Source: a virus. Taken from it: a stretch of 15,749 nucleotides of DNA. Shown here piece after piece: positions 5,423 to 15,477 of this stretch. The stretch lies in UHGV virus genome UHGV-0120055; one strand, written 5' to 3'. The translations under genes were made by a program, and so were the position numbers. The notes under the pieces are model-generated. The model ran no database searches. It was not told the DNA's origin and worked only from the letters and a program-made list of their open reading frames with translations. Every line of letters begins with the position of its first letter. Position 1 is the stretch's first letter.

Positions 5423-6115
5423 TTAATTGTGTCGCTTAATGGTTTGTGACTGGCTGATTAAGACCTTTCCAAAGACCATAAACCGGTGTTCATTTTCGCT
5501 GGTAATTCCCCATTCACGGTAAATCTGGTTATCAGAAATCACCAGTAGTTTGTCAGGTATCATTTGCAGTCGTTTGACATAAATTTTATCATCAAAACCA
5601 AATACATAGATACCATCTCCATCAAACTGATTGATACTGACATCAACGAAGATGAGATCTCCTGGCTCAATGGTTGGACACATACTGTCCCCACGAACGT
5701 TGATAACTTTAATGTGATTGGCTGGCCGTCCACCAAACATCGATACAGCATTATCAGTTCTGTATTCAATGGCATGAATCACATCAATGACATCACCGCC
5801 CTGGATAAGGCCATTTCCCGCACTGGCACTGACATCCAGCATTTCAATACGGAATACATCCTTCACCTGCGCAACATCCTCACTAATACTGTTTTTACAT
5901 ACAGTATTACTTTTGAAGTCTGAGGTAAAGAGATCAGCAATATCAACACCTAAGCTCTTGGCAATATTACTCAGGGCTTGTTCAGTGAATTGTTTCTGCT
6001 TACCTGTTTCCAGGCGTGAGATATTCGCCGCATCCACTCCTATTGCTTCAGCGAGATCGGCGATTTTCATGTTCTTCGCCTGGCGAAGTTGTCTGACTCG
6101 GTTTCCTATGTTCAT
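5423..6115 (-). CDS. CI-type prophage repressor (HTH_XRE N-terminus, S24 LexA-like autopeptidase C-terminus)
   Basis: N-terminal HTH (KIADLAEAIGVDAANISRLE), Ala-Gly cleavage-site candidate (SASAGNG), Ser/Lys dyad context (RGDSM ... VKRL). ATG 6115 has no SD and sits 7 nt from a -10-like hexamer, consistent with a leaderless transcript as for lambda cI from pRM. Confidence 0.85.
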   Translation of the reverse strand: MNIGNRVRQLRQAKNMKIADLAEAIGVDAANISRLETGKQKQFTEQALSNIAKSLGVDIADLFTSDFKSNTVCKNSISEDVAQVKDVFRIEMLDVSASAGNGLIQGGDVIDVIHAIEYRTDNAVSMFGGRPANHIKVINVRGDSMCPTIEPGDLIFVDVSINQFDGDGIYVFGFDDKIYVKRLQMIPDKLLVISDNQIYREWGITSENEHRFMVFGKVLISQSQTIKRHN

Positions 6116-7017: not shown

Positions 7018-7162
7018 ACAGTTTAACGGCAAATAACCGTTTGTCGCAACAGCTGGTGGTCAGTGTCGCTGCACACCTGTTGTTACGGCATGAATGCAGA
7101 TTACCAAATCACCTGGCTGTAAGTAACCACAGAGAACTTTACCTGACTGTGGGGGGCGAGTT

Positions 7163-8386: not shown

Positions 8387-9375
8387 GCCTGTTAATGACA
8401 TCCCAGCCCATTGTGATAAATCGTGATCTTGCATGCCGTATTGGTCTGAATGAGGCAATTGTGTTGCAGCAGCTTCATTACTGGCTGAATGAAACGAATT
8501 CAGGCACTGAGCATGGCGGAATTCGCTGGGTTTATAACACGACAGAACAGTGGCTGGAGCAGTTTCCGTTCTGGTCAGAGTCCACTCTGAAACGCACATT
8601 TGCAAGCCTGAAATCACTTGGGGTTTTGCGTCGCGAGCAACTCAATAAATCGAAGCGTGACATGACCAACTTCTACACGATCAACTATGAAAGTGAGCTT
8701 TTAGAAGAGGTCAAAGTGAACGAATCCATCAGGTCAAAATGCACCTCTCCATCGGGTCAAAGTGACCTGATGGATGAGCGCAAAATGACACGATCCATTG
8801 GTTCAAAACGACACGCTGTCATCGGGTCAAAATGGCCCAATGATCTTACAGAGAATACAACAGAGATTACTACAGAGAATAAAACCTCTTCTCGTCCGGA
8901 CGCTTCGCAACCGGACACGCAGATGGCTGAACAGGATTTTTTAACTCGCCATCCTGATGCGGTTGTATTCAGCCCTAAAAAGCGCCAGTGGGGAACGCAG
9001 GATGATTTGACCTGCGCACAGTGGCTCTGGAAAAAAATCATCGCTCTGTACGAGCAGGCCGCCGAATGTGACGGCGAAGTGGTACGTCCTAAAGAACCGA
9101 ACTGGACAGCCTGGGCAAACGAAATTCGCCTGATGTGTGTACAGGATGGGCGTACTCACAAACAAATCTGCGAGATGTACAGCCGCGTCAGCCGCGATCC
9201 GTTCTGGTGCCGTAACGTGCTCAGCCCGTCGAAGCTGCGGGAAAAATGGGATGAGCTTTCCCTGCGCTTATCGCCGTCCGTCAGCACGTACACAGAAAAA
9301 CGCGAAGACCCGTACTTCAAAGCCAGTTACGACAACGTGGACTACAGCCAGATCCCGGCAGGATTCAGGGGGTGA
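8383..9375 (+). CDS. replication initiator / replisome organizer (lambda O-like)
   Basis: N-terminal region (LNEAIVLQQLHYWLNE ... WSESTLKRTFASLKSLGVL) resembles phage replisome-organizer N-domains; GGAGG SD at 8372-8376; an iteron array lies in the linker-coding region as in lambda O. Confidence 0.75.
   Translation: MSLLMTSQPIVINRDLACRIGLNEAIVLQQLHYWLNETNSGTEHGGIRWVYNTTEQWLEQFPFWSESTLKRTFASLKSLGVLRREQLNKSKRDMTNFYTINYESELLEEVKVNESIRSKCTSPSGQSDLMDERKMTRSIGSKRHAVIGSKWPNDLTENTTEITTENKTSSRPDASQPDTQMAEQDFLTRHPDAVVFSPKKRQWGTQDDLTCAQWLWKKIIALYEQAAECDGEVVRPKEPNWTAWANEIRLMCVQDGRTHKQICEMYSRVSRDPFWCRNVLSPSKLREKWDELSLRLSPSVSTYTEKREDPYFKASYDNVDYSQIPAGFRG
8709..8890 (+). repeat. origin-like iteron array plus A-rich direct repeats inside the O-like gene
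   Basis: Four 17-bp iterons TCCATC(A/G)GGTCAAA(A/G)TG at 8725-8741, 8748-8764, 8794-8810, 8818-8834 and a partial copy at 8709-8719; iteron 2 extends into a palindrome (...GTGACCTGATGGA); then ACAGAGA x3 in an A-rich tract (8845-8885). Confidence 0.6.
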
Positions 9376-9377
9376 TT

Positions 9378-9866
9378 ATGAGTATTTTGAATGAAGTTCA
9401 GAAATTCATTGAAGCCCATCCGGGGTGTACTTCCGGAGACATTGCGGATGCTTTTGCAGGTTACTCACGGCAGCGCGTTCTGCAGTCAGCAAGCAAGTTA
9501 CGTCAGAGTGGGCGTGTGGCTCACCGTTGTGAAGGAGATACACGCAGACATTTCCCGCGCCTGACTGAGAGAGCGCAGGAACCGGAACCACAACCAGTTC
9601 GTGAAACCAGACCTGTGCGCAATTTCTATGTCGGCACTAACGATCCCCGTGTGATTTTGTGCCTGACCCGTCAGGCGGAAGAACTGGAGTCCAGGGGCTT
9701 ATACCGTCGTGCTGCAACCGTGTGGATGGCGGCATTCCGTGAAAGCCACTCCCAGCCAGAACGAAACAATTTTCTGGCGCGTCGTGAGCGGTGCTTACGG
9801 AAAAGCAGCAAGCGCGCTGCATCGGGTGAAGAGTGGTATCTGTCAGGGAATTACGTGGGGGCTTAA
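9378..9866 (+). CDS. putative transcriptional regulator (wHTH-like N-terminus; PerC-like C-terminal motif)
   Basis: ATG 9378 with GGGGG SD (9368-9372). C-terminal LESRGLYRRAATVWMAAF recalls the PerC/Pch motif; tentative. Confidence 0.55.
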   Translation: MSILNEVQKFIEAHPGCTSGDIADAFAGYSRQRVLQSASKLRQSGRVAHRCEGDTRRHFPRLTERAQEPEPQPVRETRPVRNFYVGTNDPRVILCLTRQAEELESRGLYRRAATVWMAAFRESHSQPERNNFLARRERCLRKSSKRAASGEEWYLSGNYVGA

Positions 9867-10519
9867 TGAGTAATAAATATTGCCAGGCGCTGGTGGAACT
9901 GCGGAACAAACCAGCCCATGAACTGAAGGAAGTGGGCGATCAGTGGCGCACGCCGGACAACATTTTCTGGGGAATTAACACCCTGTTTGGCCCGTTTGTT
10001 CTGGATCTGTTCACTGACGGTGATAACGCCAAATGTGCCGCGTATTACACGGCGGAAGACAACGCGCTTGCGCATGACTGGTCAGAACGTCTTGCGGAGC
10101 TTAAAGGTGCTGCCTTTGGTAATCCCCCATACAGCCGCGCCAGTCAGCATGAGGGGCAATACATCACCGGCATGCGTTACATCATGAAACATGCCAGTGC
10201 CATGCGTGATAAGGGCGGGCGCTATGTTTTCCTGATCAAAGCTGCCACCAGCGAAGTGTGGTGGCCGGAAGATGCAGATCATATTGCTTTTATTCGCGGG
10301 CGTATTGGTTTTGAACTGCCTGTCTGGTTTATCCCGAAAGACGAGAAGCAGGTACCGACAGGAGCTTTTTTCGCTGGTGCTATTGCTGTTTTTGACAAGA
10401 CCTGGAAGGGACCGGCAATCAGCTACATCGGGCGCGATGAACTTGAGGCATGTGGTGAGGCGTTTCTGGCGCAGGTTCGCCAGCAGGCGGAAAAACTGGT
10501 CAGGGAGATGGCGGCATGA
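9866..10519 (+). CDS. phage Dam-family DNA N6-adenine methyltransferase
   Basis: NPPY motif (GNPPYSR) and upstream WRTPDNIF ... FVLDLFTD pattern typical of phage Dam-family methyltransferases; ATG 9866 overlaps the upstream TAA (TAATG); GGGGG SD at 9856-9860. Confidence 0.8.
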   Translation: MSNKYCQALVELRNKPAHELKEVGDQWRTPDNIFWGINTLFGPFVLDLFTDGDNAKCAAYYTAEDNALAHDWSERLAELKGAAFGNPPYSRASQHEGQYITGMRYIMKHASAMRDKGGRYVFLIKAATSEVWWPEDADHIAFIRGRIGFELPVWFIPKDEKQVPTGAFFAGAIAVFDKTWKGPAISYIGRDELEACGEAFLAQVRQQAEKLVREMAA

Positions 10520-10842
10520 CGACGTTAACTCAATGCCAGCAGCAGGTGCTGGATATGCTGATTTCTTATCAGAAAGAACGTGGCTTCCCGCCAACCAATC
10601 AGGAGGTGGCAACCATGCTGGGATACCGTTCAGTGAATGCAGCGGTGGAGCATCTTCGCGCACTGGAGAAAAAAGGCGTCATCACGATAAAGCGTGGCGT
10701 GGCCCGGGGGATAACGCTTCATACCGCGGTGAAGGACGACGACAGCGAGGCGGTCGGGATTATCCGCGCACTGCTTGCCGGTGAGGAAAACGCAAGGCTG
10801 CGTGCAACCCACTGGTTACATGAGAGGGACCTGAAAGTATGA
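10516..10842 (+). CDS. LexA N-terminal DNA-binding-domain-like protein (no peptidase domain)
   Basis: MTTLTQCQQQVLDMLISYQKERGFPPTNQEVATMLGYRSVNAAVEHLRALEKKGVI closely parallels the LexA winged-helix N-domain ([56 protein letters not shown], from memory); only 108 aa with no S24 domain; ATGA overlaps at both ends. Confidence 0.7.
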   Translation: MTTLTQCQQQVLDMLISYQKERGFPPTNQEVATMLGYRSVNAAVEHLRALEKKGVITIKRGVARGITLHTAVKDDDSEAVGIIRALLAGEENARLRATHWLHERDLKV

Positions 10843-11228
10843 AGCTGATCCTGCCTTTTCCGCCCAGCGTGAACACGTACTGGCGACACCCCAACAAAGG
10901 GGCGTTTGCTGGTAAGAGTCTGATAAGCGCGGCGGGGCGAAAATTCCAGAGCGCGGCGTGCGCAGCAATAGTTGAGCAGTTACGTCGTCTGCCGAAACCA
11001 ACGTCGGCACCTGCTTCAGTGGAGATCGTGTTGTTTCCTCCGGATAACCGGATCCGCGATCTGGACAACTATAACAAGGCGCTGTTTGACGCCCTGACCC
11101 ACGCGGGTGTGTGGGAAGACGACAGTCAGGTGAAAAGAATGCTGGTGGAGTGGGGACCGGTTATCCCGGAAGGGAAGGTCGAGATCACTATCAGTAAGTA
11201 CGAGAAAACGGCGGGTGCAGCCGCCTGA
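10839..11228 (+). CDS. rusA: RusA Holliday-junction resolvase
   Basis: MKLILPFPPSVNTYW ... DLDNYNKALFDALTHAGVWEDD matches the RusA family signature; common in lambdoid nin regions. Confidence 0.85.
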   Translation: MKLILPFPPSVNTYWRHPNKGAFAGKSLISAAGRKFQSAACAAIVEQLRRLPKPTSAPASVEIVLFPPDNRIRDLDNYNKALFDALTHAGVWEDDSQVKRMLVEWGPVIPEGKVEITISKYEKTAGAAA

Positions 11229-11247: not shown

Positions 11248-12057
11248 ATGAATAATCTGATGGTCATTGATGGTATTGAAGTTCGTCGTGATGCTTATGG
11301 GCGTTACAGCCTGAACGATCTGCATCGCGCAGCAGTAGCATCTGGTGCAAATGCCAGAACCAAGGAGCCGGGAAAGTTTCTTTCCAGCCAACAAACTGTT
11401 GAGCTTGTTCATGAATTGACCAACACCCAGAATTTGGGTGTTGACCCGGTGAGTGTGATTCATGGGGGAAATGAACGGGGAACGTATGTCTGCAAGGAAC
11501 TGGTGTATGCCTATGCAATGTGGATCAGCCCGTCATTCCATCTGAAGGTGATCCGTACTTTCGATATGGTAACCAGCGCACCGGAAAAATTATCCGGACA
11601 GGCTGCTGACAAGATGCAGGCTGGCGTGATCCTGCTGGACTTTATGCGCCGGGAGTTAAACCTGTCTAACTCTTCAGTGCTTGGTGCCTGTCAGAAACTC
11701 CAGGAGGCTGTTGGCTTACCGAATCTGGCACCGCGCTATGCCATTGATGCTCCTGCTGACGCGCCTGATGGCTCAAGCCGCCCCACGCTATCATTGAGTG
11801 CACTGCTGAAGCAGTATGGTATCCGCCTGACAGCTAATCAGGCATATCACCAGATGGCGAAGCTGGGGATCGTTGAACAACGTGAACGATACAGCCGCAC
11901 TGCGATTAACAACATCAAAAAATTCTGGTCGCTGACGGCGAAAGGCTGCATGTTCGGCAAGAACATCACCAGTCCCGCAAATCCGCGCGAGACGCAGCCG
12001 CATTTCTTCGAATCCCGATTCCCTGAGCTGTTAAAGCTGCTCGATACCGTTCATTGA
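11248..12057 (+). CDS. KilA-N domain protein
   Basis: ATG 11248 with AGAGGAG SD (11232-11238); N-terminus MNNLMVIDGIEVRRDAYGRYSLNDLHRAA ... GTYVCKELVYAYAMWISPSFHLKV matches the KilA-N pattern; C-terminal half unassigned. Confidence 0.7.
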   Translation: MNNLMVIDGIEVRRDAYGRYSLNDLHRAAVASGANARTKEPGKFLSSQQTVELVHELTNTQNLGVDPVSVIHGGNERGTYVCKELVYAYAMWISPSFHLKVIRTFDMVTSAPEKLSGQAADKMQAGVILLDFMRRELNLSNSSVLGACQKLQEAVGLPNLAPRYAIDAPADAPDGSSRPTLSLSALLKQYGIRLTANQAYHQMAKLGIVEQRERYSRTAINNIKKFWSLTAKGCMFGKNITSPANPRETQPHFFESRFPELLKLLDTVH

Positions 12058-13067: not shown

Positions 13068-13820
13068 ATGAACCTTGAAGCCTTACCGAAATATTACTCC
13101 CCGAAATCTCCAAAATTGAGCGATGACGCACCGGCGACAGGCTCTGGTGGTTTAACAATTACGGATGTAATGGCTGCGCAGGGTATGGTGCAGTCGAAAG
13201 CACCGCTTGGGTTTGCCTTATTCCTGGCAAAAGTTGGTGTTCAGGATCCTCAGTTTGCGATTGAAGGTCTGCTCAATTACGCGATGGCACTGGATAACCC
13301 GACATTGAACAAATTGAGTGAAGAAACCCGGTTACAGATCATCCCTTACCTTGTGAACTTTGCCTTTGCTGATTATTCCAGGTCTGCGGCAAGTAAGGCT
13401 CGCTGTGAGCATTGTGCTGGTACTGGATTTCATAATGTATTGCGCGAAGTGGTGAAACACTCCAGAAGCGGGGAATCTGTTATCAAGGAAGAGTGGGTGA
13501 AGGAACTGTGTCAGCATTGTCATGGTAAGGGAGAAGTCAGCACAGCGTGCAGAGGGTGTAAGGGTAAAGGTATTGTCCTGGATGAAAAAAGAACCCGGCT
13601 TCATGGCACGCCTGTTTATAAGGTTTGTGGGCGTTGCAATGGAAACCGGTTTAGCCGTTTACCAACCACACTGGCGCGGCTTCATGTCCAGAAGCTGGTA
13701 CCAGACCTGACGGATTATCAGTGGTACAAAGGATATGCAGATGTCATTGATAAACTGGTTACAAAGTGCTGGCAGGAAGAAGCATATGCAGAGATACAAT
13801 TGAGAAAGGTGACAAGATAA
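13068..13820 (+). CDS. late-gene antiterminator Q (phage 82 / Qin-type)
   Basis: 250 aa with Cys clusters (CEHCAGTG ... CQHCHGKG ... CRGCKGKG ... CGRCNG) and followed by a promoter plus strong terminator; GTGGAG SD at 13055-13060. Family by recollection. Confidence 0.7.
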   Translation: MNLEALPKYYSPKSPKLSDDAPATGSGGLTITDVMAAQGMVQSKAPLGFALFLAKVGVQDPQFAIEGLLNYAMALDNPTLNKLSEETRLQIIPYLVNFAFADYSRSAASKARCEHCAGTGFHNVLREVVKHSRSGESVIKEEWVKELCQHCHGKGEVSTACRGCKGKGIVLDEKRTRLHGTPVYKVCGRCNGNRFSRLPTTLARLHVQKLVPDLTDYQWYKGYADVIDKLVTKCWQEEAYAEIQLRKVTR

Positions 13821-14427: not shown

Positions 14428-15477
14428 ATGAAAAACACTGTGAAAATAAACAGTGTTGATTTAATCAACGCTGATTGCCTGCATTTTATTCAGTCCCTGC
14501 CTGATGATTCCATTGACCTGATTGTTACCGATCCGCCGTACTTCAAGGTGAAACCCAACGGCTGGGACAATCAGTGGAAAGGGGACGAAGATTACCTTAA
14601 GTGGCTGGACCACTGTCTGGCGCAGTTCTGGCGGGTGTTAAAACCTGCAGGAAGCCTTTACCTGTTCTGTGGACATCGCCTGGCATCTGATATCGAAATC
14701 ATGATGCGTGAACGCTTCAGTGTGCTGAACCATATTATCTGGGCGAAGCCGTCCGGACGCTGGAACGGATGCAACAAGGAAAGCCTGCGGGCGTATTTCC
14801 CCGCCACAGAGCGCATTCTGTTCGCGGAACATTATCAGGGGCCGTATCGTCCGAAAGATGCCGGGTATGAGGCGAAGGGCAGGGAACTGAAACAGCATGT
14901 GATGACCCCGCTGATTGCTTACTTTCGTGATGCGCGCGCTGCCCTGGGGATAACGGCAAAACAGATTGCAGATGCCACAGGAAAGAAAAACATGGTGTCG
15001 CACTGGTTCAGTGCCAGTCAGTGGCAGTTGCCGAACGAAAGCGATTATCTGAAATTACAGGCGCTGTTTGCCCGGGTGGCAGAAGAGAAGCATCAGCGCG
15101 GTGAACTGGAAAAGCCCCACCACCAGCTGCTGAAGACGTATACTTCACTGAACCGGCAGTATGCGGAACTGCAGAGTGAATATAAGCATCTGCGGCGGTA
15201 TTTTGGCGTGACGGCGCAGGTGCCGTACACGGATGTGTGGACACATAAACCGGTGCAGTTCTATCCCGGGAAACATCCGTGCGAAAAACCGGCAGAAATG
15301 CTGCAGCAGATAATCAGCGCGAGCAGTCGTCCTGGTGACATGGTGGCGGATTTCTTCATGGGTTCTGGCTCAACCATAAAGGCGGCTATGGCGCTTGGGC
15401 GTCGTGCAATTGGTGTTGAGCTGGAGACCGGACGTTTTGAGCAGACAGTCAGGGAAGTTCAGGATTTAATCGTTTGA
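14428..15477 (+). CDS. DNA methyltransferase, beta-class N6-adenine/N4-cytosine (N6_N4_Mtase-like)
   Basis: Motif IV DPPY near the N-terminus (LIVTDPPYF) and motif I FxGxG near the C-terminus (DFFMGSGST), i.e. beta-class order; no adjacent restriction-endonuclease-like ORF in the window. Confidence 0.8.
   Translation: MKNTVKINSVDLINADCLHFIQSLPDDSIDLIVTDPPYFKVKPNGWDNQWKGDEDYLKWLDHCLAQFWRVLKPAGSLYLFCGHRLASDIEIMMRERFSVLNHIIWAKPSGRWNGCNKESLRAYFPATERILFAEHYQGPYRPKDAGYEAKGRELKQHVMTPLIAYFRDARAALGITAKQIADATGKKNMVSHWFSASQWQLPNESDYLKLQALFARVAEEKHQRGELEKPHHQLLKTYTSLNRQYAELQSEYKHLRRYFGVTAQVPYTDVWTHKPVQFYPGKHPCEKPAEMLQQIISASSRPGDMVADFFMGSGSTIKAAMALGRRAIGVELETGRFEQTVREVQDLIV

Follow-up and report, generated by a model that had tools for sequence, protein, structure and literature searches.

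The window analysed here, the whole 15,749-nucleotide stretch of the virus genome UHGV-0120055, corresponds to the early region of a lambdoid prophage, and between a DNA methyltransferase gene and a resolvase gene it carries a small gene, here called lexN, whose product is a LexA-type DNA-binding domain without a peptidase domain. We show that lexN is a real gene maintained under purifying selection, and we tentatively propose that its product is a RecA-insensitive LexA mimic that would occupy SOS-type operators. The gene, the parts of its product and its two immediate neighbours lie as follows.

10516..10842, + strand: lexN, standalone LexA-type DNA-binding protein of 108 amino acids, stop codon included (open reading frame list, Pfam PF01726, PHROG 362)
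10516..10719, + strand: winged helix-turn-helix of lexN, residues 1-68 (predicted local distance difference test score, pLDDT, of about 88 in the AlphaFold (AF2) model; helices 6-22, 28-35 and 40-52, strands 56-58 and 66-68)
10633..10671, + strand: recognition helix of lexN, residues 40-52 (VNAAVEHLRALEK), with S39 just before it (alignments)
10720..10737, + strand: flexible hinge of lexN, residues 69-74 (pLDDT below 50 at 71-74; length and sequence vary across the family)
10738..10824, + strand: two-helix C-terminal tail of lexN, residues 75-103 (helices 75-87 and 93-103; conserved across the family)
9866..10519, + strand: phage Dam-family N6-adenine methyltransferase (Pfam PF05869, 1.1e-45; stop overlaps the lexN start)
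10839..11228, + strand: RusA Holliday-junction resolvase (Pfam PF05866, 6e-15; start overlaps the lexN stop)

The original prediction had placed a 108-amino-acid frame here, coupled between a Dam-type methyltransferase and RusA, and both statements hold. The frame opens with an ATG and runs uninterrupted for 108 codons; the ATG shares bases with the TGA that ends the Dam-family gene upstream (..GGCATGACG..), the lexN TGA shares bases with the ATG of rusA (..GTATGAAG..), and the identical Dam-lexN arrangement is present in RefSeq annotation. Rare predicted Dam-LexN or LexN-RusA fusions, mostly single-member clusters, were also seen (P0121, P0254, P0026, P0092, P0274, P0293 and P0253); the probable cause is a frameshift, or an error of gene calling where neighbouring genes overlap by 4 nt.

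Several independent searches identify the domain. Pfam PF01726 (LexA_DNA_bind) matches the protein over the full domain (positions 1-65 of a 65-position profile; E=2.9e-19), scoring 69 bits where the gathering cutoff is 23.7 bits, and no Pfam match to the S24 peptidase domain (PF00717) was found in the protein, which ends at residue 108. The NCBIfam lexA equivalog model TIGR00498 scores 70.6 bits, below its cutoff of 110.95, with a match confined to profile positions 1-91 of 203, which confirms that the C-terminal domain is missing; the claim that lexN is a LexA N-terminal winged helix lacking S24 is thus borne out by both models. A search of PDB sequences returned LexA entries only (1lea at E=6e-16, and also 1jhh, 3jso and 8trg). 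Homology to LexA is therefore certain, and only the earlier description of a match that runs "almost residue by residue" was overstated: BLASTP aligns residues 1-90 with E. coli LexA at 43% identity, using a LexA sequence that is consistent with the PDB matches, and Foldseek gives about 50% identity across a 68-residue core. An AF2 model built from 29 family members (mean pLDDT 82.5), with a β-hairpin wing spanning residues 56-68, finds its best Foldseek matches in LexA (1lea and 3jso; root-mean-square deviation 1.0-1.3 Å over 67-70 columns), so that the superposition on LexA that had been proposed as a check shows a close fit for the N-terminal part. With PADLOC, lexN gave a weak match to a CARF-associated winged helix-turn-helix only (E=3.6e-4) and no defence-system assignment.

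The first reading of the sequence overlooked the hinge and the conserved two-helix tail that follow the winged helix. The tail pattern, ..EAxxLLRALLxGExxARxRAIxFLxxxG.., is kept even among relatives that share no more than 40-57% identity, A97 and L101 never vary, and a Pfam scan of the tail alone assigned it to no family, returning a sub-threshold match to the NIL domain only. In its predicted layout of winged helix, hinge and helical hairpin, lexN parallels the winged helix, hinge and dimerisation domain of LexA, and the tail is an obvious candidate for an independent dimerisation module. Like E. coli LexA (PDB 1lea, 1jhh and 3jso), the protein thus combines a winged-helix fold with a flexible hinge after the wing; unlike LexA, it has no S24 peptidase/dimerisation domain and none of the catalytic pair Ser119/Lys156, and carries the two-helix tail instead.

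The residues that would read DNA are retained to a degree that varies within the family. LexA recognises CTGT mainly through S39, N41, A42 and E45, according to a review that cites the crystal structure of LexA on DNA (PMC11442139), and an older contact list adds E44 (PMC3091678); our contact residues are taken from these two secondary sources. In the alignments S39, N41, A42 and E45 of lexN are all identical to E. coli LexA, as are K53 and R64-G65-I66. Across the lexN family the winged-helix positions that are invariant, or in the case of N41 nearly so, are Q8, G23, P26, E30, G36, S39, N41, L50, K53, R64, G65 and I66, and every one of them is also identical in E. coli LexA. To judge from these alignments, a LexA-like scaffold and part of the half-site reading are present throughout the family, and the full direct-readout set in some subfamilies only, lexN among them.

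That the gene is maintained is clear from its distribution. It is intact in all 82 related loci, where 47 DNA alleles encode only 14 protein variants and the mean pairwise ratio of nonsynonymous to synonymous substitution rates (dN/dS) is 0.087. Of 5426 complete E. coli genomes, 2233 (41%) carry it at no less than 95% identity, and the exact protein is found on at least 1000 contigs. It is also present in 50 phage records, including SfV (orf42), SfII, SfIV, mEp460, cdtI and Stx2a-, Stx2c- and Stx2k-converting phages. A profile search of genome contigs with the family alignment returned mainly chromosomal lexA genes (Halomonas and relatives), along with one Shigella and one Citrobacter locus, and so added little to the known diversity of the family. 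The protein has long been annotated, as "LexA family transcriptional regulator" or "LexA DNA binding domain protein", and PHROG 362 (about 106 amino acids) matches its residues 1-108 over profile positions 1-106 of 106, tail included (E=3.8e-59). We found no functional study of the lambdoid lexN protein in the literature, where "LexA family regulator" in papers on Stx phages mostly means cI-type S24 repressors.

Three further genes of the window annotation bear on the position and possible targets of lexN.

5423-6115, - strand: cI-type repressor with helix-turn-helix (HTH) and S24 domains
13068-13820, strand not stated: antiterminator Q
14428-15477, strand not stated: N6_N4 DNA methyltransferase gene downstream of Q, followed by lysis genes in relatives

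Leftward early genes come first in the window; cI is followed by cro- and cII-like genes, a Rha/Ash protein, a replication protein and a PerC-family protein, then by Dam, lexN and RusA, and finally by a KilA-N protein, DUF968 and Q. A scan for promoters predicted none on the + strand between the replication genes and Q, and a terminator scan around lexN found only weak terminator-like sites on that strand, from 12483 onward. These scans are weakly in favour of a single operon, and lexN accordingly looks like a delayed-early gene of a rightward transcription unit. The order methyltransferase, lexN, RusA, KilA-N or Rha/ANT, DUF968, Q recurs around homologues 46-55% identical in Cronobacter, Salmonella and Atlantibacter. 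The homologue of Klebsiella and Enterobacter prophages is longer (130-135 amino acids) and has no methyltransferase upstream, and the gene still stands ahead of DUF968 and Q. An SOS promoter in the Klebsiella prophages (TTGAAC, 17 nt, TACTGT, with the box TACTGTTTATTTATACAGTA) lies ahead of dinI, a known SOS attenuator, and the lexN homologue follows two genes downstream of dinI (L003-L005:5360-6393); in an Enterobacter prophage the homologue is preceded, at a distance of 440 bp, by a similar SOS promoter and box (L172:6530-7408). Canonical SOS promoters ahead of the gene suggest that the family is SOS-induced in this clade. The PerC-family transcriptional activator gene directly upstream of Dam (yfdN-like, 9372-9866) is itself syntenic with lexN in several genera.

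The scan for LexA boxes suggested by the original prediction returned three exact CTGT-N8-ACAG sites in the window, at 5889, 7117 and 14438. Only 0.17-0.26 such sites are expected, three were reached in none of 200 shuffles, and a scan of spacings from 0 to 20 showed enrichment at spacing 8 only. The sites, all from the motif scan and without an assigned strand, are these.

5884..5909: candidate target, a 26-bp perfect palindrome (TAATACTGTTTTTACATACAGTATTA) with an SOS box, in the cI-like repressor gene
14434..14457: candidate target, an SOS-type perfect palindrome (AACACTGTGAAAATAAACAGTGTT) on codons 3-10 of the N6_N4 DNA methyltransferase gene
7117..7132: weak candidate, the third exact CTGT-N8-ACAG core (CTGTAAGTAACCACAG), in the rha/ash gene

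Within the cI palindrome, the 20-mer at 5887-5906 differs by one base from the K-12 umuDC operator (TACTGTATATAAAAACAGTA, read from NC_000913). The box falls on codons 71-76, which encode part of the linker from HTH to S24; an O157:H7 prophage and 12 further loci have a variant that matches the umuDC operator exactly, and a box occupies the same position in homologous cI genes of Salmonella and Citrobacter prophages. We found no paper describing this box. The palindrome in the methyltransferase gene occurs as a variant, TACTGTAAAAATAAACAGTG, in 20 related loci, and its CTGT..ACAG core survives synonymous variation. The rha/ash core is found in 34 related loci and has flanks that are poor for a LexA box. 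As to co-occurrence, lexN is present in all 13 phage records with this cI allele, and in 32 of the 42 IMG/VR prophages in which the cI box has 7 kb or more of flanking sequence, at a distance of 2.75-5.25 kb. The link between lexN and SOS boxes that these counts suggest is not decisive.

Some further observations concern these sites and their surroundings. On the cI sense strand (about 5935-5860, minus) the box stands in the layout of the umuDC promoter (TTTACC, 17 nt, TACTGT), and the next in-frame start after it is a GTG at codon 84 preceded by GAGGA. We speculate that a LexA-repressed promoter inside cI could yield a 147-amino-acid cI fragment comprising the hinge, a putative Ala-Gly site and the S24 domain but no HTH. 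In 11 relatives (L019:6014, L036:10765 and L045:5640 among them) a box, TACTGTATTTATGAACAGTG, lies over the start codon of the open reading frame directly 3' of rusA, which in L019 reads as a KilA-N protein; a box in this position resembles LexA-controlled antirepressor modules. In the window, the KilA-N gene contains a 23-bp palindrome (CAACACCCAGAATTTGGGTGTTG, 11421-11443), and relatives of the L019 type have a similar sequence immediately upstream of their SOS box.

The reading we favour, tentatively and with slightly more doubt than confidence, is that lexN is a LexA mimic that RecA cannot switch off. In the rightward early operon, the gene comes after those for replication and ahead of antiterminator Q, and its product would therefore be made after induction or infection, while host LexA is being or has been destroyed; in the Klebsiella/Enterobacter clade the homologue would be produced from an SOS promoter. 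We infer that the winged helix, which retains the LexA residues that read the CTGT half-site, would act as a dimer, that the helical tail behind the hinge would stand in for the LexA C-terminal domain as the dimerisation element, and that this dimer would bind palindromic CTGT-N8-ACAG operators. Since lexN has no S24 domain, activated RecA (RecA*) would be unable to inactivate it, and it could re-occupy LexA operators in the host SOS regulon, in co-resident elements under SOS control and in the phage's own DNA, where they lie within cI and at the methyltransferase gene downstream of Q. Given the fold, the absent protease, the retained contact residues, the purifying selection, the operon position and the SOS-type boxes, occupancy of SOS boxes by lexN is plausible.

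Precedent for a DNA-binding head acting by itself comes from LexA. The N-terminal cleavage fragment of LexA (residues 1-84), like lexN, is a DNA-binding domain without the protease; it still binds operators, 10-1000-fold more weakly, with residual repression, and full SOS induction requires its degradation by ClpXP (PMC11442139). Because the fragment keeps binding and has to be removed in this way, a stable LexA-type head with a dimeriser of its own would be a credible repressor. Unlike the fragment, lexN ends in ..DLKV and carries the conserved tail, which may confer dimerisation and stability. A further difference from LexA is that lexN is phage-encoded, lies in an early lytic operon and is not autoregulated behind an SOS box of its own in the window. 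Other proteins of mobile elements, namely DinI homologues, GIL01 gp7 and the plasmid protein PsiB, damp or reshape the host SOS response; these act on RecA* or on the LexA protein, whereas lexN would act at the DNA.

An extension of this reading, which we regard as rather unlikely, joins lexN and the umuDC-type operator in the phage's own cI into a relay of two LexA proteins. Host LexA would hold the phage SOS boxes in the lysogen, and its RecA*-driven loss would open them briefly; uncleavable lexN from the early operon would then close the phage boxes again, and would likewise shut down the SOS regulon of the host and competing elements under SOS control, for example colicin plasmids and prophages that depend on an antirepressor. 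For the induced phage, the outcome of such a relay would be an SOS pulse of set timing and sole use of the cell.

If lexN is indeed a LexA mimic, a RecA-proof LexA substitute that is active at prophage induction is present in about 40% of complete E. coli genomes, O157:H7 and those with Stx2-converting phages among them. The length of the SOS response after antibiotic treatment or DNA damage would be affected, as would SOS mutagenesis, the timing of colicin and Shiga-toxin production and competition among co-resident prophages. It would also represent a second, independent capture of the LexA DNA-binding head by a phage, after gp6 of the Bacillus thuringiensis tectivirus GIL01, here with LexA specificity kept and a new dimerisation tail. 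The hypothesis is medically relevant and not surprising in kind.

A number of observations weigh against the mimic. The sole characterised phage-encoded truncated LexA homologue that we found, gp6, does not bind LexA boxes. Position 44 of lexN is Val, where LexA has E44, and Glu never occurs at this position across the family. Positions 44 and 45 differ by subfamily (AVEH, AAEH, AVDH, ATDM, ANDH, ALTH, VLLH and VFIH), a variation that is unexpected if every member must bind one conserved host operator, and the very Klebsiella clade that lies behind an SOS promoter has Leu at position 45. Among 46 lexN loci with adequate flanks, 20 lack a strong SOS box in the interval from -6 to +7 kb, and none was found at the lexN loci of Cronobacter and Atlantibacter. 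With just a few kilobases between them, the cI box and lexN may occur together through linkage and common descent, and every SOS box in the prophage could be explained by host LexA alone.

Several of these points would fit a phage-specific transcription factor, an activator or repressor with an operator of its own, derived from LexA and used to time phage genes instead of the host SOS regulon. We consider this possible, though on balance improbable. Its model is gp6, which is 44% identical to the host LexA N-domain, has diverged in specificity, binds a palindromic operator of its own (GaCACAnnTGTGaC) and activates the late promoter (PMC6182141). Like lexN it is phage-encoded and consists of a LexA DNA-binding domain with no C-terminal domain; it is made from early transcripts after SOS induction, in a phage that carries boxes for host LexA as well. 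The differences among subfamilies at the base-facing positions 44 and 45 are what would be expected of operators co-evolving with each phage, the loci without nearby SOS boxes are accommodated, standalone LexA-type proteins are common in many phage groups, and the label of PHROG 362 is "transcriptional repressor", an annotation and not an experimental assignment. Should lexN have its own operator, it would be an ordinary uncharacterised regulator of an early operon.

Some observations speak against a private operator. The gp6 operator overlaps the -35 element of the late promoter, and its core, CACANNTGTG, has no match in the window, where the only dyad with 5-bp arms and an A+T-rich spacer that occurs twice is ACTGT-N8-ACAGT. 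No alternative repeated dyad came to light: in a count of all 4-mer dyads at spacings 0-14 over 294 kb of de-duplicated related loci, GC-rich terminator stems dominate and variant copies inflate the counts; half-site variants (TTGT, ATGT, CTAT and others) at spacings 7-9 gave no alternative operator-like family; and repeated dyads with 5-bp arms within single loci of other subfamilies offered nothing convincing. Moreover, lexN keeps all four CTGT contacts of the crystal structure, and a late activator like gp6 is not needed in phages whose late genes are under the antiterminator Q. The two proteins differ in other ways: lexN belongs to a separate enterobacterial lineage, that of lambdoid phages with Q antitermination, and has kept the CTGT-reading residues, and gp6, compared by its description, ends shortly after the wing and has no helical tail.

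We think it improbable that lexN is a DNA-binding accessory factor for the DNA-transaction genes around it (methyltransferase, RusA, DUF968/HNH-like), targeting methylation or junction resolution for example. The overlaps of its start and stop codons with Dam and RusA would suit such a role. So would the presence of a DNA methyltransferase gene just upstream in E. coli, Cronobacter, Salmonella and Atlantibacter, with RusA after lexN: these methyltransferases have different Pfam compositions (PF05869, PF05869+PF00145 and PF02086; L006-8:4829-6004, L169:4403-7004 and L170:6167-6991), drawn from three families in all, and the recurrence of different families in one place hints at more than inherited synteny. 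Against this, the Klebsiella and Enterobacter members do without an upstream methyltransferase, conserved gene order without functional coupling is common in the nin regions of lambdoid phages, and we know of no precedent for a LexA winged helix as an accessory factor to a methyltransferase or RusA.

LexA dimerises through its C-terminal domain, the very domain that lexN is missing, which makes it very improbable that lexN poisons host LexA as a subunit or forms heterodimers with it, the possibility raised in the original prediction: the two proteins share an N-terminal fold only, the tail is unlike the LexA C-terminal domain, and that claim is not supported. We also rejected, as scarcely credible, a substrate decoy that is cleaved in trans or competes for an S24 active site, given that the Ala88-Gly89 of lexN, which BLAST and HMMER alignments running through the hinge place on the Ala84-Gly85 cleavage site of LexA (LLAGE versus VAAGE), is not conserved in the family (AN, VG, NG, DD and EE variants) and is predicted at a helix end and not in an extended loop, and that lexN has no protease to cut it.

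Seen among its relatives, lexN is an uncharacterised member of a kind already known. Standalone LexA DNA-binding-domain proteins of 65-150 amino acids are frequent in phages (matches in BFVD come from caudoviruses, tectiviruses and a mycobacteriophage), and one of them has been characterised, so lexN is not new in kind. What sets it apart is the conserved tail, the retained CTGT-reading residues and a very high prevalence in E. coli, Shiga-toxin phages included. The searches also returned proteins of 140-350 amino acids in which two LexA DNA-binding domains stand in tandem (P0130, P0131, P0148, P0150, P0153, P0156 and others); these are possible single-chain pseudo-dimers.

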